A DNA stretch of 64,000 nucleotides, from IMG/VR virus record IMGVR_UViG_3300037047_000246; one strand, written 5' to 3'. The translations under genes were made by a program, and so were the position numbers. The DNA comes from a virus. Lineage: Duplodnaviria > Caudoviricetes. Each line of letters begins with the position of its first letter. The first letter of the stretch is position 1. Shown here in pieces: positions 1,886-10,200 of the stretch. Below the pieces are notes generated by a model. The model was not told the origin of the DNA, did no database searches, and saw nothing but the letters and a program-made list of their open reading frames with translations.

Positions 1886-2815
1886 ATGCCAGCCCCCCAC
1901 CCGACTCTTGTGCACGCGCTTGAGCAGCTGCGCCCGGAGATGGCCGCAGCTGCTCAAGCTGTGGTGGACGCCTGGGCGCAAGACGACGACGGTTTTGACG
2001 AAGACTTTGGCGCGGGCGGGATTTGCGACGAAGTGTCTTCCGCACTGGCAAGCGTCATTGCGAGCTGCCTGGACGGCGCGGAGATTTCCGAGGGCGGCCA
2101 CGACGGAGATGACCACGCTTGGCTGATTGTGGCAGATGCCGGAGAGGCTGCCGGCGTGGACATTCCGCCTGGGGTCTACGAGACTGGAGGCGGGTACAAC
2201 TGGCGCAAAATAAAAGACGCGGTCATACGCCCTGAAGACGTGGCTATATGGAAGCTGGACAGGAGAGACGTCGTGGCAGCTGCAAGGACATGCGTGCATA
2301 CCGGCAGGTTTGTGTTTCAGGGCAGGACGTACGACATCAAAGTATGGTCTGACGGCACCGCAGTCGTTCTGTACCAAAAATCCGGCAAATGCGTCTTCAA
2401 GTGGGATCCGCTGACCGATGGCCTCGGGCAGAAGTGGGCTTTGTATGGGGGCGGCAAAGCTATCTTCGACGCGGCCGTAAAATACCTCAAGCCAATGCTG
2501 CCAGGCTTTCCGTTCGCGCAGGTCGCAGAGGTGCCCAAGCAGGCAGCCGGGGAAAACGAGATGAGGCTTCGGCCAGGCCCTGGATTCCGCCTGCAAGCGG
2601 ACGGGACCTGGGCCGTGGAAGCCGTGCCGGCCGCCGTGACACGGGATGCCCGTTTCTCGGGCTTCTTGGCTATAGAGGGGTATTGGTGTGCGGTCTTCGA
2701 GCTCGAGGGCGAGGAATGGGCACAGAAAGCCGCAGGACAGGTGCCTCCGGACAGCCCGATGGCCAGGATGTCGGCCGTGGCCTGCAGAGTGGCCGGACTT
2801 CAGCGCAATAAGTAG
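1886..2815 (+). CDS. hypothetical protein with a putative transglutaminase-like Cys-His-Asp domain (309 aa)
   Basis: ATG at 1886 is the first in-frame start after the upstream stop at 1857. N-terminal half has GGICDEVS...DDHAWLIV...GVDIP. Confidence 0.65.
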   Translation: MPAPHPTLVHALEQLRPEMAAAAQAVVDAWAQDDDGFDEDFGAGGICDEVSSALASVIASCLDGAEISEGGHDGDDHAWLIVADAGEAAGVDIPPGVYETGGGYNWRKIKDAVIRPEDVAIWKLDRRDVVAAARTCVHTGRFVFQGRTYDIKVWSDGTAVVLYQKSGKCVFKWDPLTDGLGQKWALYGGGKAIFDAAVKYLKPMLPGFPFAQVAEVPKQAAGENEMRLRPGPGFRLQADGTWAVEAVPAAVTRDARFSGFLAIEGYWCAVFELEGEEWAQKAAGQVPPDSPMARMSAVACRVAGLQRNK

Positions 2816-4362
2816 ATGAACTTGTGCTTGCCGGGAGTTTCCACTTTTGAGAGTTCCAGGTGAGTCGCATACTCTTTCTCGCTAAGACCTCTGCTCTTTG
2901 CTGCGTTGTAGAGAGTTTTCTTGTTGATTTCGGTGCCGTCTTCTACACAACGATAGTAGTATGACTTGGCGCCGGTCCTAAGAAACTCCCAGTTGGATGC
3001 TCTGTATAACCCTCCCACATGTCCATACATTGGATCCGCAAAGGACACCAAAGCAGTCACGTCAGGCTTTGACCGTTTCACAGCCTGAATGACCATTGAC
3101 ATAATTTTTGATCCAAGGTTTTTTGTAGCTACTCCAGGGACGATCAAGAACCTGTCCAACTCCAAAACTTCGAGCTGCTCAAGCCCTTCGGAAGTGGCCA
3201 CTTCCTTACGCACTACTGGTGCGAATTTAACCACCGCCACAATGCGGTCGTCTGGCGTGGTCACTTGGTAGATAATTGATGCAGCGCGCCCGTACCTGGC
3301 GTAATGGTACTTGTCTAGAAGTTGTCTGCACGCCGCAACATCTCCATGAGAAATTTTGATAGTGTTGATATCCACGTCGATCGCGATTGACTCATACTGG
3401 ATTGGTGACTCCAGAACGGCCGCCTGTGTTTTGCGATTGAACGTTCTTATTCTGTGACAGCAAGCGCACACGAGATCGCATTTTGCTATCTCTTGCTTTA
3501 TGGCATCTAGGCTTCGATTACACAATTTGGCTACGTTGCATACCTTCTTGTCTCCCCTATGATCAAAGTCTAGCACCCAGTACCTAAACACCACACCGCA
3601 GTCCATGCACGCTTTGTTGTCCTTCTGCGAAATCACGTACTCTTTACCTAATCGTTTCTTTCCGAGTGCTCGTCTTGCAGAAGCATACTCGTTATTGCGT
3701 TGCCTCAGACAACGCTTGCAGAAGCTATGTCTATATCCTGTTTTCAGCAAAGTGAAATTATCTTCGTGCTTTGCGACATGGCACTGAGAGCAAGTTCTGC
3801 TTGTGCATCCGTCGATGATAGGTATTTCTGTAACCTCGCGCGGCTCTTTACGGTTTTTAGTAACCGGCGTTTTATGCTCTTCTTGTCTGGTCATGTCTCG
3901 GTGACAGTTTGCGCACATCAACACACATTTTGATACCTCCAGACTTAGTCTGGATGCGCTGCGTTGATACAACTTGGAGATGGCTGTGGACTTGCCGGCC
4001 CTATCCATGTGATGGAAGTCCATGGCGCACGACGGATATTGGTTACCACACCTAACACATTTTGACTGCTTGTGCGATGCGATGAGTTTAGCGGACTTAC
4101 GGAAAGATCGAATGGACGCCTGATTGCTCACCGCCGAGTTTTCATGTCTCCACTTTCTCATCTTTTGACTGATGCATATCTTGCATATCGTGCGATGAGC
4201 GTAGCTCGGACAGAAATCTGCGAGCTTTTTCTCTACGCTGCATTTCTTGCACGTCTGCAGATCGTCTAAGTGGGCAAGTCTGAATGCGTGCCATCGATCA
4301 CGTTCTGACGCGTCGGACTGCTTGCGGAGCAGTTTCTGTGACTCCGTTCTTTGCTTTGGCAT
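2800..4362 (-). CDS. fusion of two Zn-finger/HNH nuclease modules and a C-terminal Mu Mom-like (GNAT-fold) DNA-modification domain (520 aa from ATG 4362; ORF open to GTG 4428)
   Basis: Two copies of CxxC..CxxC + CxxCG...DF(H/D)H...KCxLxCA(N/C)CH. C-terminal KYHY / LELDRF / KNLGSKIMS / LVSFADPMYGHVGGLYRASNWEFL matches the Mom motif series (TKHY / MELNRM / RNSESRAIS / VQSFADERCG..GVVYQASNFDFIG, recalled from Mu Mom). Confidence 0.85.
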   Translation of the reverse strand: MPKQRTESQKLLRKQSDASERDRWHAFRLAHLDDLQTCKKCSVEKKLADFCPSYAHRTICKICISQKMRKWRHENSAVSNQASIRSFRKSAKLIASHKQSKCVRCGNQYPSCAMDFHHMDRAGKSTAISKLYQRSASRLSLEVSKCVLMCANCHRDMTRQEEHKTPVTKNRKEPREVTEIPIIDGCTSRTCSQCHVAKHEDNFTLLKTGYRHSFCKRCLRQRNNEYASARRALGKKRLGKEYVISQKDNKACMDCGVVFRYWVLDFDHRGDKKVCNVAKLCNRSLDAIKQEIAKCDLVCACCHRIRTFNRKTQAAVLESPIQYESIAIDVDINTIKISHGDVAACRQLLDKYHYARYGRAASIIYQVTTPDDRIVAVVKFAPVVRKEVATSEGLEQLEVLELDRFLIVPGVATKNLGSKIMSMVIQAVKRSKPDVTALVSFADPMYGHVGGLYRASNWEFLRTGAKSYYYRCVEDGTEINKKTLYNAAKSRGLSEKEYATHLELSKVETPGKHKFIYLLR

Positions 4363-4367
4363 ATGGG

Positions 4368-4430
4368 ATTTTACATCTACTAGGTGGTCAGAATAATTTG
4401 ACCATTTATTGCAGCTTTTGATGACCACCT
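4368..4430. promoter_or_regulatory. divergent control region between the HNH-Mom gene and the tail tube gene
   Basis: Minus-strand TAAAAT (4373-4368) 5 nt before ATG 4362; TGGTCA-N8-TGACCA palindrome (4385-4404); 9-bp inverted repeat AGGTGGTCA (4382-4390) / TGACCACCT (4422-4430). Confidence 0.45.
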
Positions 4431-4446
4431 CTCGCTAGGAGACATC

Positions 4447-5121
4447 ATGCGCACCCAAGAGCTGCAAGATTCAATTTATTGGAAGGGCGCTGCCCCCAAT
4501 ACGCGCGTTGCTATAAGTCAGAAGAACCGCGTTTTTTCCAAGCCTTTCGGCGCTGGCAAAAAGTGGCTCCAGGTAGGAGTGCTGTCGACGTTCGATTGGT
4601 CAGAGTCCCGCACGATTGATCCGGTGCGCGGAGTTGGCTTCGGCGACCGCGTGCAGGAGCTCGTGCCCAGCGTCACTGAGCCGCCGACCCTGACTCTCAA
4701 CAGGACCCTGCTGTACACCTCGGGACTGATGCAGGAGCTTGGCTACAGGGGCGGCATCGACGGCGTGGTCCGATCGCTGAGGCATCACAAGTGGCCGTTT
4801 GACATCATGTCCGAACTTGTGTTTTCCGAACTTGTGACGAAGGGCGGACAGCAGCCCCCGTTCGCGCAGGGAGTCAGCATTCAGACGTCGGCAGTCGACA
4901 ACCAGCTGTGTCTGACGACGTTCTTCCAGTGTTGCTGGCTCAACAACATCTCTGTCAGCTTCCCTGCAGACTCGGCCATTGTGCTAGAGAACTGCTCGGC
5001 CACTGCCATGGACATCACCGACGGCAGCGTGATTCCGCAGTCGTACAACGACATGATGAGGTCCGGCAACAGCCCGTTCGAGGCTGAAGAAGGCGGATCG
5101 CTTCTCTTCCAGCAGCCTTGA
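4447..5121 (+). CDS. contractile tail tube protein (224 aa)
   Basis: Motif series ESRTI..VRGVG.G...ELVP...TLTLNRTLLY...PFDI...CW..I.....E typical of large-myovirus tube proteins; AGGAG SD; sits upstream of chaperones and tape measure. Confidence 0.8.
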   Translation: MRTQELQDSIYWKGAAPNTRVAISQKNRVFSKPFGAGKKWLQVGVLSTFDWSESRTIDPVRGVGFGDRVQELVPSVTEPPTLTLNRTLLYTSGLMQELGYRGGIDGVVRSLRHHKWPFDIMSELVFSELVTKGGQQPPFAQGVSIQTSAVDNQLCLTTFFQCCWLNNISVSFPADSAIVLENCSATAMDITDGSVIPQSYNDMMRSGNSPFEAEEGGSLLFQQP

Positions 5122-5131
5122 TTGACGTCTG

Positions 5132-5169
5132 CCCGGTAGGGTGTTTGCAGGCGCACACACCCTACCGGG
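5132..5169 (+). other. strong intergenic RNA hairpin
   Basis: CCCGGTAGGGTGT (5132-5144) pairs perfectly with ACACCCTACCGGG (5157-5169), extended by one mismatch, 3 bp and an AGGC tetraloop; no U-tract. Confidence 0.75.
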
Positions 5170-5175
5170 ATCAAC

Positions 5176-6021
5176 ATGGACGACAATTTTTTCAAACAGC
5201 TCGACGCTGCTCTTACCAACGTAGGCGCGGACAAATACTGGGAACGCATGATAGGCGGCCACACAGTGTGGATGGCTTCAGTGCCGTTCAAGTATCAGCA
5301 TCACATCAACGAGATACTGACCAACCAAAACCTTGGCACCAACATCATAGGTGAAGTCAAGCGCATGACGTTGGCGTACTCCATCGTCGGATTTGACGGC
5401 TTCGACCTCCGCCCATATCGCAACGACGCACCATCTTTCCCAGTGCAGGACAGGGAGAGCAAGATCGTGCGCGTACCTCTATACAAGTACCTGCTGCATA
5501 AAATGGAAGAGTGGGGCATCGAGTGGGTGGACTCTGCCTTCGATGTGTTTGCTGACATCACAGAGACAATTAAGAAAGAAAACATCAAGGAGATCAAGTT
5601 CGACAATGCTCGCGACAAGCGAGAAGAGTTGGCTGAGCTTGAGGAAAAAGTGAGGGAGCTCAGGGCAGACTTGTCCATGCCGCCTCTTGTGGAAATGAGC
5701 GATGAGGCTGCAGAAAAGCCGGCCGCAGCCGCTTCGGCGCAGGAAGATTCCGCACCGTTCAACCCGTTCCAGCGCATGCCAGACGCGCAGCTAGCGCAGC
5801 CGCTCCCCGCGCAGCCTATTCAGCAGCCGCTCCCCGCGCAAAAGACCTTTGCTACTGATCTGCTCGGGCAAGATTCTTCTAGCACGCCCGACAAGCCTTT
5901 TGCGGCAAGGCACGACGTCGACGTGTTGGAAGAGAGGTCCGTCAGGCCTCCTGAACCTCCGATTGTCATAGACCCGGCCCAGAGCAACCGCAACCCAAGG
6001 TTCAGACCGCAGTCTCGCTAA
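5176..6021 (+). CDS. putative tail assembly chaperone (281 aa)
   Basis: Position between tube and tape measure; acidic, short coiled coil, Pro/Gln-rich tail. Confidence 0.55.
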   Translation: MDDNFFKQLDAALTNVGADKYWERMIGGHTVWMASVPFKYQHHINEILTNQNLGTNIIGEVKRMTLAYSIVGFDGFDLRPYRNDAPSFPVQDRESKIVRVPLYKYLLHKMEEWGIEWVDSAFDVFADITETIKKENIKEIKFDNARDKREELAELEEKVRELRADLSMPPLVEMSDEAAEKPAAAASAQEDSAPFNPFQRMPDAQLAQPLPAQPIQQPLPAQKTFATDLLGQDSSSTPDKPFAARHDVDVLEERSVRPPEPPIVIDPAQSNRNPRFRPQSR

Positions 6022-6079
6022 AGGCGCCTTCGGTCTGTCTATGCCGCGGCGCGATTGAATTCTTGCTGACACGGAAGGC

Positions 6080-7252: not shown

Positions 7253-10200
7253 TCCGAAAACAAACGTCTCTTTCGGCATGCATCTTGACCAGGCGTCTGC
7301 CGCCAAGGCGGTGAAGGACGCTGATGCGCTAGTCAAAGAGATGCAGCGCAAGCTGCGCGGATTGGGCGTTGACTGGAGCAAAGTCGCAGGGCAAGCCAGC
7401 TCTGTGACAAGCGAGATTCACGCCATTTCCGACGCCGCCGGGGTGTTCGCCAACAAGCTTGGCGGGGCTGCGACCTCGAGTTTGCAGAGCTTCAAGCACC
7501 TTGCGGACGAAATAGAGAATGCTCAGAGCTCCATAGAAGAGCTGAATGAGCAGTACAAGAACGCCGGGTCCAAAGAAGCGAAGGAGCATATCGAGAAGGC
7601 GATAGCGGACCAGGTCAAAGAGATGGAGGGTCTCACCAAGCAGATACACTCTGAGAAGTCTGCTCGCGCCAAGGAGCTTGTGCAGCTGAACAAATTGATC
7701 AAGCTGCAGAACAAGTACCAAAAGACAGTTCAGAACGCTGTTGACTTCGACATCAACGATGCGCTGGGCAGCGCTTTCGATAAGATCAAGGGCGGCGACC
7801 TCAAGGGAATGTTCAAGGACCTAGGCGGCGGCTTGCTCAAAAATGCAGGCAGCAAGTACGCCCAGGGCGCCATGAACAAGGCCGAAGCCGCCGGCGGCAT
7901 GGGGACTCAAGCCGGCGCGGCGGAGATAGCCAGCGCGTCCAAGATGCTGAGCTTTTCCGCCATGGCCGTCGGCGCTTCGGTTGCCGTGTTTGTCGGGTTC
8001 GTAGCTTTGGTGAAAGCGGCAAGCGATCACATGACGAAGCTGAACTCTGCGCTCATTCAGGGCATGGGCTTCACCAACGACATGGTGAATGACACCAAGG
8101 GATACCGCAATGTCATGAACGAAGTGCGCAAAGCGGCAATTGACTCACACAGCGCTATGTTGAGATTTGGCAAAAACTCCGAAGATGTGCTGAAAGTCAT
8201 CAACGCCTATGCGAAAGATTCCACAGGGTCCCTAATCAAGACTCGCAATGCCATGCAAGATCTTGGCAAAGGCAACCTGCAATTCGGAGTAGAAGAATTT
8301 GCCAGGAATGCGGTCGTGTTCGGCAAAGCTCTCAATATGGAAGCTGAAGAAGTGGCTTCCATGATGGGAAAATTCCAATCAGAGATGGGGTATGGATTTT
8401 CGCAGGTGCAGGGCCTGATGAAGGACGTAGTCAAGGCTGCTGCCACATCAAGCATGCCGATGTCCAAGTTCATGGAGATATTCAAATCTGTCATTCCTGA
8501 CGTGGAGCTATATCGCAATCGGCTCGAAGAGCTTACAGGAACCATAAAGCTCCTGTCTAAGACCATGAGTCCTAAAGACGTAAAGCAGTTCATGGACGCT
8601 TTTGCCAAAGGTTTTTCCGGCACTGATTTCAAACAACGCCTCAAGACGGCTCTAATAGTTGGTGTCCCGAAGGTCAGCGAGATCGCGGCTAAGGATTTTT
8701 CTTCAAAAGCCGGTGTGATGGCGGCCAAGTTTTCCAAATATCTTAAGGGCGGGCCGAGTCAGTTCATGGATGCTTTCAACAAGGGCGAGAAAGGGATGGC
8801 AGATCTCGTCTCAGAAATGCAAGCAGAAGCGTCTAAACGCGGCGAGGCGCTGTCAGGTACTGATATTGGCGAGGCGATGAAACTAGCTTCATATGAGGCG
8901 TCGCGCCAAAAGGGAGACCCGCTGGCGATAGCCTCTGCCATGAAGGGCATGGGCATGCTCGGCACTTACAAAGTGTTGAAAGAGATGAGCCAAAAATTCA
9001 CGAAAGGATTTGATGGCTTGAGCGAGCATGTCATAGCCCAAACAGGGATCAGCGAGCAACAGTATGAGGCTTTGAGGAAAACCGATCAGTCGATGAAGGT
9101 TTGGAAGAGCACTCTCGACAAGTTTGGTATGACCAATAGCAAATCGATGAACAATGCGCTGCGTGAGCAGATATCGATCCGCAAGTTCGGCGACATAACA
9201 CATAAAGACGCAGTGAACCTGAGAGAGGCTACAGAGGAGGACATTTTTCTGGCGACTCAACAACATGATGAGTCTATGAAGACTGAAATCACAGCTGCTG
9301 ATTTGGCGCAGGAGCAAGTTAGCGCCACCAAATCGATATCTGACAAGCTGAGCGACGTCATAGCATATTTGCTGGAGCAGATATTCGACATTTTGCAGCC
9401 GATCCTTGATTGGCTTGATAGAGCATTCACGTGGCTTATCGGCGGTGGCAAAGCTAAGGTTAAAGATATGCAGGACGCCACCGATGATCTCGTCAAGGGG
9501 TTCACAGGTGAAGACGCCGGGGCCAAAAAAGAGCAAGCAAAAGCGATATCCGCTGCTCTAGTCGACGGTTTGAATAAAGGTAAGTCGGGAAAGGACTTGG
9601 CAGAGTTTTTTGCTACGAGTGGGGCCGTCTCTCAAGAGGACATGAAAGACATAGACCCGAAGAAAATTTACGAATTCTCACGCTCCAAGGGCATGAGCGT
9701 AGATAAAGCGGCCGAGATTCAAGAAGCCTTTTACCAAGCTATGAAGCAAGGCAATATGATTGAAGCCATGAAAACCATCAACTCCATTGATGGTGACACA
9801 GGGCAAAATCTGTTGCAACTGTTTGCTGGCGGAGCTTTGGTTGAACCGAACAACAGATTCAAGGAAGCAGCTGAGAAGAGGAGCGCTAAACAGCGGCCGA
9901 ACACTAAAATAACGGCCGGACCAACTACCATGCAGGGTAGGGCGGAGGCCGATAGGTTGGCTAAAGAAGCAAGCGACCTGGAGACGATGATAACACCAGA
10001 GCAGAAGGCGGACGTCGAGTCTTATACTGGAAAATTTTGGGACGAACTGACGGATAGCGAGAGGGATAAGGCACTTGAAGAGCTTGGCGTGCTTGGTCCG
10101 GGCCAGTCAACATCTCAAGTAGCTAGCTCGCCGCAGACTCAAAGTCAAGGTCAGAGCCAAACAAATTCGCAAACAGGAACAGCATCTTCTCCTGGAGCCA

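Follow-up and report, generated by a model that had tools for sequence, protein, structure and literature searches.

A tandem zinc-finger HNH nuclease carrying a C-terminal Mom-type GNAT domain in a 362-kb uncultured phage: a candidate exchangeable selfish gene with a self-protecting domain

A protein combining two tandem zinc-finger HNH nuclease modules with a C-terminal Mom-type GNAT domain was found in a 64,000-nucleotide stretch of DNA (the window) belonging to a 362-kb uncultured phage (Table 1). The genome holds 13 nuclease-Mom fusions, this one included, and none of its Mom domains stands without a nuclease, whereas the 377-kb G001, a colinear relative, has a single fusion. In G001, 8 or more of the 13 sites are vacant, the flanking orthologues being separated there by just 10-400 bp, and at the slot of the gene described here G001 carries a 309-aa twin-HNH gene without a Mom domain. 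An earlier sequence-only reading had proposed either a self-contained restriction-modification (R-M)-like unit or a homing endonuclease carrying its own immunity. The architecture it described holds; its two functional interpretations are both only compatible with the data, and the comparative evidence, namely 13 copies versus one, empty sites in G001 and a replaced occupant at a fixed slot, favours a selfish exchangeable element. We consider it about an even call that this nuclease gene is a selfish one, free-standing and open to lateral exchange, whose Mom domain serves for self-protection, and that it is homing-endonuclease-like or single-chain R-M-like in its action.

Table 1. Coordinates of the fusion gene, its domains and its neighbours in the window.
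Feature	Position	Strand	Description
Upstream neighbour	1886..2815	+	3' end overlaps the 3' end of the fusion gene tail-to-tail by 16 bp
Whole gene	2800..4362	-	520 aa + stop (ORF, translation); twin zinc-finger HNH nuclease fused to Mom-type GNAT domain
Mom-type GNAT domain	2803..3363	-	aa 334-520
Linker	3364..3408	-	aa 319-333; flexible, pLDDT <60
HNH module 2	3409..3624	-	aa 247-318; C252, C255, D265-F-D267-H268, C295, C299-A-C-C302-H303-R304; columns invariant
Zinc finger 2	3700..3801	-	aa 188-221; C191, C194, C215, C218; Cys invariant
HNH module 1	3874..4071	-	aa 98-163; C102, C105, D115-F-H117-H118, C146, C150-A-N-C153-H154-R155
Zinc finger 1	4165..4260	-	aa 35-66; C38, C41, C60, C63
Divergent spacer between fusion gene and tube-like gene	4363..4446	.	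84 bp
Tube-like neighbour	4447..5121	+	conserved, 224 aa; tail-tube-like as lead only

The minus-strand reading frame is open over 2800-4428, and the start at the ATG at 4362 agrees with the N-termini of the homologues, the full-length members of which are 505-540 aa long and share 39-73% identity with the protein. The gene lies, as first noticed from the sequence, on the strand opposite to both flanking genes and is low in GC (0.46-0.49 over 2800-4400 versus 0.58-0.65 in the flanks; 0.48 for the fusion gene versus 0.573 genome-wide). A single sigma-70-like match, a consensus match only, was detected on the plus strand of the divergent spacer (4370-4397), and a scan for sigma-70 promoters and terminators returned sites no more numerous than in shuffled sequence. 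The tube-like gene adjoins a twin-HNH gene in every close relative examined; its label rests solely on an Atlas lead to Phi812_tail_tube (score 0.96), no Pfam or PHROG match having been obtained for it, and among the structural-looking neighbours only an AAA ATPase received a PHROG or Pfam name.

The two finger-plus-HNH modules were recovered with the motifs that had been read from the sequence at about 4260-3875 and 3800-3430, and prove to be homologues of one another (29% identity, E 3e-12). The D-x-[D/H]-H strand motif, the C-x-x-C-H helix motif and the four zinc-binding Cys are present in both modules and invariant in 23-25 homologues; D115, H118, H154, D265, D267, H268 and H303, together with all zinc-binding Cys, are invariant in 23 homologues. 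We take the two motifs to correspond to D40/H43 and N62 of T4 endonuclease VII. In zinc finger 1, modelled as short strands with pLDDT >90, all four Cys are invariant or nearly so (23-25 homologues). Matches to PHROG 2255 (E 6e-48, in two stretches), 3106 (E 3e-34), 4234, 35854 and 740, all labelled HNH endonuclease, were obtained for the protein; those to 3106 and 35854 involve module 1, the motif columns of which are invariant, and that to 2255 involves module 2. Module 2 also shows 36-40% identity to single-module genes annotated as HNH in isolated phages. Pfam has no HNH model that matches the 520-aa protein at E up to 1, and NCBIfam gave no match to it; PF01844 is carried by the more remote homologues P0034, P0035 and P0041.

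Structural comparison, based on a model with pLDDT 89.9, lent the HNH fold weak support. HNH nucleases (Hpy99I, Gme HNH, T4 endonuclease VII, Cap5, GVE2, ZRANB3 and Cas9 HNH) lead both the Foldseek search and the independent VIA search (Z 3.1-4.8), and Foldseek against the PDB with the N-terminal 335 aa gave nothing at E 0.001 or better (best E 0.19). Residues 83-167 weakly match GVE2 HNH, Cap5 and the retron HNH (Z 3.2-3.9), the top VIA match of zinc finger 2 is the zinc-finger region of Hpy99I (Z 4.8), and module 2 matches Gme HNH (Z 4.7) and T4 endonuclease VII, the latter being among the best structural matches, weak as it is (Z 4.3). The T4 endonuclease VII-type nucleases and the single-module HNH genes of actinophages and Pseudomonas phages share the arrangement CxxC...D-x-D/H-H...CxxC-H/N; unlike in these, the module is here tandem-duplicated, each copy being preceded by an extra CxxC...CxxC finger of its own. 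The N-terminal two thirds of the protein would represent a tandem duplication of a T4 endonuclease VII-type zinc-finger and HNH module, which would place two active sites and two DNA-reading fingers in one chain, an arrangement that might suffice for cleavage of both strands of an asymmetric site.

The replacement of Asn by Cys in the CACCH motif of module 2 was considered as a catalytic loss and rejected, since the position varies among N, C and V, with D265, D267, H268 and H303 invariant; this Asn (CxNCH) is presumably not a metal ligand, judging from the comparison with T4 endonuclease VII. The same substitution, the missing Pfam HNH match and the weak structural matches could be accounted for if the HNH modules were dead DNA-binding fingers that aim the Mom domain, the protein being then a sequence-targeted DNA modifier devoid of nuclease activity. 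However, this is highly improbable given the invariance of D-x-[H/D]-H and C-x-x-C-H in both modules, the resemblance of single modules to annotated phage HNH endonucleases, and the existence of twin-HNH genes that lack Mom, including one at this very slot.

The C-terminal domain, suspected from the outset to be Mom-like, matches Pfam PF25680 over aa 338-519 (85.5 bits versus a cut-off of 27.1, E 5.1e-24), PHROG 1384 ("Mom-like", E 7e-23) and, by sequence profile, Mu Mom (PDB 8BV8, E 3.9e-9). Its modelling as a GNAT/Mom fold was likewise confirmed, the top Foldseek matches being 8bv8_A (E 8.5e-12) and 8bv8_B (E 4.3e-11), with TM(target) 0.63-0.66 and the next GNATs at E 1e-5 or weaker. Mutation of Y49, R101, S114, D139 or Y149 (231-aa numbering) each impairs Mu Mom (PMC7261163, PMC13219725). 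These residues correspond to Y354, R404, S418, D443 and Y453 here and are identical in all 8 Pfam-detectable paralogues; in 23 homologues, HY353-354, ELDR401-404, S418 and D443 are invariant and Y453 nearly so. Purifying selection was detected on all three domains (23 homologues, 38-72% identity), a conservation pattern that, as far as sequence can tell, fits functional nuclease modules and a functional Mom domain.

A different picture was obtained for the essential R151 of Mu Mom (R141 in the 231-aa numbering), which aligns to M445 here and is T in three paralogues. The position varies among the 23 homologues, in all of which a G-H-x-G is found instead, with H448 three residues after M445. 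Given the loss of the R151 equivalent, this subfamily may use another donor or another chemistry, or its Mom domain may do no more than bind DNA. The chemistry assumed in the sequence-only reading, N6-methylcarbamoyl-adenine, is out of date: Mom moves glycine from Gly-tRNA(Gly) onto N6 of adenine (PMC13219725). A Mom-type enzyme would be expected to form N6-carbamoylmethyl-adenine on dsDNA. Mom chemistry has only recently been solved as tRNA-dependent. No tRNA-Gly is encoded in this phage genome. Compared with Mu Mom (PDB 8BV8; PMC7261163, PMC13219725), with which it shares the Pfam family, the GNAT fold, the HTH-like insertion and the five residues above, the domain differs in being the tail of a nuclease and not a stand-alone 231-aa dimer under Com/Dam/C control, in lacking the dimer residue W48 (W38 in the 231-aa numbering), in carrying Met at the R151 equivalent, and possibly in its substrate base, which may be 2-aminoadenine.

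This last possibility arises from a PurZ-type gene (PurZ signature) carried by the genome, on the basis of which this phage may contain 2-aminoadenine in place of adenine. Should its DNA indeed be Z-DNA, own and host DNA would differ without any Mom mark, which weakens the need for Mom-based immunity. The PurZ-type gene and the lost R151 equivalent would also suit a homing endonuclease whose Mom-like domain no longer modifies DNA and serves as a DNA-binding or base-flipping target module, or as a sensor of adenine versus 2-aminoadenine or a modified base, so that the protein would be a modification-sensing nuclease. Mu Mom binds dsDNA and has been modelled to flip adenine by means of the HTH-like insertion retained here, the fusions join one C-terminal module to three nuclease types, and DNA-binding modules are commonly swapped among homing endonucleases. 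Nevertheless, S114, D139, Y149, Y49 and R101, which in Mu Mom are involved in catalysis and cofactor or metal binding, are kept in all paralogues and in the 23 homologues and would be superfluous for pure binding, which makes a non-modifying domain quite improbable.

If the Mom domain is active and works as Mu Mom does, it would attach an aminoacyl group, namely glycine taken from Gly-tRNA, to adenine at the exocyclic N6, the acceptor base being 2-aminoadenine if the phage has Z-DNA. Being tethered to the DNA-reading fingers of the nuclease, it would mark the nuclease's own target sites, those that would otherwise be cut; the carrier genome would be immune, and unmarked DNA of the host, of a competitor or of an element-free relative would be cleaved. 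The architecture, the conserved catalytic residues, the multi-copy family and the presence/absence and replacement polymorphism are observed, whereas cleavage, modification and the link between them in the fusion protein are inferred. In the whole-chain model (pLDDT 87.7, pTM 0.49) the relative placement of the domains is undefined, and with it the orientation of the nuclease active sites towards that of Mom; in some homologues the linker region holds an extra Cys/His-rich insert.

Single-chain Type IIG/IIL R-M enzymes (MmeI-like) similarly unite nuclease and modification domains in one polypeptide, in both cases presumably with one shared DNA-recognition apparatus. However, they combine a SAM-dependent methyltransferase with a PD-(D/E)XK nuclease, whereas a Mom-type GNAT and HNH modules are found here, in a phage-borne, multi-copy family. 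Another parallel is offered by the Mom-endoDNase fusions of jumbo phages predicted computationally by Iyer, Anantharaman, Krishnan, Burroughs & Aravind (2021, Viruses 13:63, PMC7824862), which also join a C-terminal Mom GNAT to an N-terminal endonuclease, occur in several copies per genome and were proposed to follow the same single-chain R-M-like logic, the mark protecting own DNA and the nuclease attacking unmarked DNA. Those fusions were described as REase-fold, whereas the present protein has two tandem zinc-finger HNH modules and its genome 13 copies, and selfish-looking behaviour is documented here by sites vacant in a relative and by the exchange of cassettes at one slot. The sequence-only reading had therefore overrated the novelty of the fusion, the logic having been already predicted for Mom-REase proteins (PMC7824862). 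What is new is the twin-HNH variant, the 13 copies, the empty sites in the relative and the swap of occupants at a fixed slot, together with the PurZ-type gene of the genome. No measured activity for any nuclease-Mom fusion was found in the literature searched.

Nuclease-Mom fusions are common in metagenomic huge phages, with dozens of clusters among the best 150 matches. The twin-HNH-Mom variant itself accounts for about 9 clusters in a set of 1.84 billion representative proteins and is absent from isolated phages: a blastn search with the locus as query gave no match in 50,697 deposited phage genomes, and tblastn gave single-domain matches only, with no record covering at least 80% of the protein. 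Twin-HNH modules are also seen on their own or with other C-termini attached, and Mom domains accompany nucleases of HNH, Vsr-like and REase-fold type, so that both parts are modular.

Lateral exchange is most visible at the slot beside the tube-like gene, which is always filled by a twin-HNH gene in close relatives. Between L033 and G001, the tube proteins are 100% identical and the flanking DNA about 86-96% identical, but the occupants of the slot are only 36% identical and show no similarity in DNA, one of them lacking Mom. The break begins about 60 bp short of the end of the upstream gene and stops at the ATG of the tube gene, where homology resumes exactly; in the window, the last approximately 20 codons of the upstream neighbour fall within the segment that differs among relatives. 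Occupant identity does not track flank identity, and occupant GC lies under that of its own genome in 5 of 6 phages. An empty site between the upstream gene and the tube gene, which the sequence-only reading had suggested seeking, was found only in L012, a distant relative with a different gene order; the site is occupied in every close relative, and homing into it is therefore a hypothesis. Sliding-window identity of the flanks showed no clear co-conversion gradient beside the gene. In L010, a possible splitting of the upstream gene by an intron or other element was rejected, the gene being a continuous 558-aa ORF with an in-frame insertion.

Several of these features recall the free-standing homing endonuclease genes of T-even phages (Seg and Mob families) and those of HNH homing and nicking enzymes such as I-HmuI, which are likewise small lower-GC genes wedged between conserved genes, although the gene is antisense here, and which share with the present family the presence/absence in close relatives, the multiple copies in one large phage genome and the modular DNA-binding parts. 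Presence or absence at precise intergenic sites was found for the family of 13 fusions, whereas at the slot of this gene, occupied in all close relatives, replacement and not absence was observed. To our knowledge, no homing endonuclease with a DNA-modifying domain is known. It is conceivable, though we rate it as unlikely, that the 13 fusions form a new homing-type selfish class with covalent immunity, in which the nuclease cuts a site in element-free relatives and the Mom domain masks it in the carrier, a probable 2-aminoadenine phage; the base that the Mom domains modify or distinguish would then be one that is not a known Mom substrate.

The comparative data also bear on a phage-wide role in offence and defence (Iyer et al., 2021), in which the Mom domains would momylate the genome broadly against restriction and the nucleases would degrade unmodified DNA of the host or of superinfecting phages, comparably to the attack of T4 endonucleases II and IV on cytosine-containing DNA, the many copies providing many specificities without any selfish element. 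This reading has in its favour a published prediction for the same kind of fusion (PMC7824862), the multiple copies also present in Pseudomonas phage PA5oct, with five momylating enzymes in one phage (PMC7824862), the conservation of all domains, and the positional orthologue kept at the slot across phages with tube proteins only 56-63% identical, suggestive of a lasting benefit to the phage. However, G001 manages well on a single copy, its slot being filled by a twin-HNH gene that lacks Mom, the 13 versus one copies and the precise empty sites look like accessory or selfish turnover and not like a core function, and one stand-alone Mom would be enough genome-wide, yet every Mom here is nuclease-fused. 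We therefore hold this role to be a serious but rather unlikely explanation, and retain the selfish, exchangeable nuclease gene with a self-protecting Mom domain as the preferred one.

Compact proteins that either cut or mark a specific site would be of potential interest to enzyme developers, and, with a probable Z-DNA background, it becomes of interest whether 2-aminoadenine is a substrate for Mom-type enzymes. With 13 copies, three nuclease types, a relative with empty sites and a slot that alternates between Mom-bearing and Mom-less twin-HNH genes, this genome constitutes a natural test set that could show whether Mom chemistry was recruited as built-in immunity for selfish nucleases.

The fusion gene is intact (520 codons, window 2800-4362, minus strand), and its ATG at 4362 agrees with the N-termini of aligned homologues. 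The antisense orientation and low GC content observed in the sequence-only reading were confirmed: both neighbours lie on the plus strand, and GC is 0.46-0.49 over the gene, against 0.58-0.65 in the flanks and a genome average of 0.573 (virus record of 362,524 bp with direct terminal repeats). The 3' ends of the fusion gene and of gene 1886-2815 overlap by 16 bp. The start of the fusion gene lies 84 bp from the tube-like gene (4447-5121), across a divergent spacer. In this spacer (4363-4446), no Shine-Dalgarno-like sequence was found ahead of the ATG, and the single sigma-70-like match is on the strand opposite to the fusion gene. At 87% identity to relatives, the tube-like gene is conserved better than any other gene nearby; it had no match in Pfam or PHROG, and its similarity to Phi812_tail_tube and DUF2001 clusters in the Atlas feature search (score 0.94-0.96) is a lead only.

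The motifs of the two tandem zinc finger-HNH modules described from the sequence were borne out. Two stretches matched PHROG "HNH endonuclease" families (phrog_2255, E 6e-48; phrog_3106, E 3e-34), and in each unit a CxxC...CxxC finger precedes CxxC...D-F-[H/D]-H...C-x-x-C-H. With 29% identity over 140 aa (E 3e-12), the two modules are homologous, and the architecture therefore arose when one such unit (finger, helical linker, and HNH core) was duplicated in tandem. In structure searches with a confident AlphaFold model of residues 1-335 (pLDDT 89.9, pTM 0.73), HNH nucleases ranked on top for both modules with weak scores (best Foldseek E 0.19; VIA Z 3.1-4.8), including Hpy99I, Gme HNH, T4 endonuclease VII, Cap5, GVE2 HNH, ZRANB3, Cas9 HNH, and McrA. 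The predicted HNH assignment is based mainly on profiles, motifs, and the similarity of module 2 to annotated HNH genes with a single module in isolated phages (36-40% identity). The Asn-to-Cys replacement in the CACCH motif of module 2 was rejected as a sign of decay, since this position varies (N, C, or V) among 23 aligned full-length homologues (38-72% identity). Every zinc-binding cysteine, together with D115, H118, H154, D265, D267, H268, and H303, is invariant in the same set, and a protein whose HNH fingers are dead and merely aim a modifier would be a very improbable reading.

The C-terminus matched the Pfam Mom family (PF25680, residues 338-519; 85.5 bits, cut-off 27.1) and the "Mom-like" PHROG 1384. 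Contrary to the outcome that would have refuted the sequence-only reading, it modelled as a GNAT domain in the full-length prediction (pLDDT 87.7), with Mu Mom (8BV8) as the best PDB match (E 8.5e-12) and ordinary GNATs about six orders of magnitude behind; given a pTM of 0.49 and a disordered linker (residues 319-333), the relative placement of the domains is not defined by the model. HY353-354, ELDR401-404, S418, and D443 do not vary among the 23 homologues, and Y453 hardly does; the conserved residues align with Y49, R101, S114, D139, and Y149 of Mu Mom, mutation of each of which impairs that enzyme (PMC7261163, PMC13219725). The essential R151 of Mu Mom (R141 in 231-aa numbering) is replaced here by Met at a position not conserved in the subfamily, in which all members instead share a His three positions downstream; the donor or exact chemistry of the predicted reaction may therefore differ from that of Mu Mom. 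A domain that serves for binding or sensing would fit this loss, but is an unlikely reading beside the residues retained. The chemistry first assumed, formation of N6-methylcarbamoyl-adenine, is outdated, as Mom moves glycine from Gly-tRNA(Gly) onto adenine N6 in dsDNA (PMC13219725). No glycine tRNA is present among the four tRNA genes of the phage's own genome, whereas the colinear relative G001 has 39 tRNA genes. In both genomes, ARAGORN also detected a tRNA whose anticodon, TTA, would decode the UAA stop codon (own genome 176188-176278, minus strand; G001 336141-336231, plus strand).

In every close relative examined, an antisense twin-HNH gene lies immediately beside the orthologue of the tube-like gene. 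The occupant is an orthologue of the fusion protein in four loci (72% identical in L011; 39-46% in L033, L034, and L036) and a 309-aa twin-HNH gene without Mom domain in G001 (locus L010). Occupant identity is not in step with flank identity. Between L010 and L033, the tube proteins are 100% identical and the flanking DNA is about 86-96% identical, yet the occupants are 36% identical and show no similarity at the DNA level. Homology is lost about 60 bp short of the upstream gene's end and returns precisely at the tube-like gene's ATG. In five of six phages, occupant GC was below that of the genome carrying it. A further 276-aa twin-HNH gene without Mom (8456-9286, minus strand) lies in L033 between the counterparts of window genes 1318-1857 and 1886-2815, where L010 has an empty site of about 100 bp. 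As for an empty site between gene 1886-2815 and the tube-like gene, all close relatives are occupied, and the distant relative L012, with a different gene order, has no twin-HNH gene ahead of the tube-like gene. The pattern at the slot bears the signature of an exchangeable cassette in a constant position; homing would be compatible with it, as would ordinary recombination through the conserved flanks. No clear co-conversion gradient was found in the flanks. In L010, the orthologue of gene 1886-2815 (4366-6042, plus strand) is 558 aa long instead of 309, since about 265 aa are inserted in frame (843 bp without counterpart in L033).

The Pfam Mom model detected eight places in the own genome, each within a 520-660-aa frame, and an HMM made from these found 13. 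Their N-termini are of three kinds: twin HNH (two fusions, including the window gene), a Vsr/DUF559-like PD-(D/E)XK core with helical or zinc-ribbon repeats (three), and, in the others, CDCG...CGRC treble-clef finger arrays with an REase core of MTES_1575 type, the GNAT domain of these fusions being more divergent.

Sister fusions in the own genome and other features discussed in the text
Feature	Position	Strand	Remarks
Nuclease-Mom/GNAT fusion	own genome 38446-40227		
Nuclease-Mom/GNAT fusion	own genome 47402-49120		
Nuclease-Mom/GNAT fusion	own genome 134116-136053		
Nuclease-Mom/GNAT fusion	own genome about 146128-147774		twin HNH
Nuclease-Mom/GNAT fusion	own genome 158061-159944		
Nuclease-Mom/GNAT fusion	own genome 165255-166946		
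Nuclease-Mom/GNAT fusion	own genome 214150-216027		
Nuclease-Mom/GNAT fusion	own genome 226798-228603		
Nuclease-Mom/GNAT fusion	own genome 232041-234260		
Nuclease-Mom/GNAT fusion	own genome 236397-238151		
Nuclease-Mom/GNAT fusion	own genome 250361-251926		
Nuclease-Mom/GNAT fusion	own genome 300690-302666		
Adenylosuccinate-synthetase homologue, PurZ-type	G000:C1:249167-250366 (= L004:292-1491)	+	NCBIfam, P-loop
Tube-like neighbour	window 4447-5121	+	224 aa; Atlas feature search only

The relative G001 is 376,674 bp long with terminal repeats, and its flanking proteins are mostly 50-87% identical; it carries one Mom fusion, compared with 13 in the own genome. Of the 13 sites, at least eight are unoccupied in G001, where the flanking-gene orthologues lie 10-400 bp apart, and three fall in variable regions. 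The G001 fusion (L013:148-2031, plus strand; G001 364599-366575) occupies the site of the second twin-HNH-Mom gene. The Mom domains at this site are 61% identical, but the G001 protein has an N-terminus of a different type (DUF7487), a domain swap at one locus.

Mom domains on phage nucleases, which the sequence-only reading mentioned, had already been described: Iyer et al. (2021; PMC7824862, section 3.4.7) proposed that momylation would shield phage DNA, with host or superinfecting-phage DNA as the target of the nuclease, and reported five momylating enzymes in PA5oct. The main proposal of the sequence-only reading, a unit that marks its own DNA and cuts unmarked DNA, is thus a published prediction. 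A restriction-like weapon serving the phage in this way appears rather unlikely here. The own genome encodes an adenylosuccinate-synthetase homologue abutting one sister fusion, with PurZ as best NCBIfam match (170.7 bits, under the strict cut-off of 300) and a GSSGKGK P-loop, which shows the Asp13-to-Ser replacement reported in every phage PurZ sequence. In this phage, 2-aminoadenine may therefore take the place of adenine. As this base keeps the N6 amino group, a Mom-type reaction on it is conceivable. Own and host DNA would, however, already be distinct in that case, which complicates the logic of marking self and cutting non-self.

Among the matches listed from 1.84 billion representative proteins, the full twin-HNH-Mom architecture forms about nine 50%-identity clusters, and C-terminal Mom domains behind other N-termini occur in many more proteins (480-700 aa). 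None of the deposited phage genomes in INPHARED has the full architecture, and the literature search retrieved no experimental work on any nuclease-Mom fusion. To the published prediction this analysis adds the twin-HNH architecture, the 13 copies, the empty sites, and the replacement at the slot. Architecture, conservation, and population behaviour are shown by the data. We give about an even chance to the reading that we prefer, in which the fusion would be a selfish nuclease whose Mom domain protects it from its own cutting; for this reading as for its rivals, the functional steps are those we infer.
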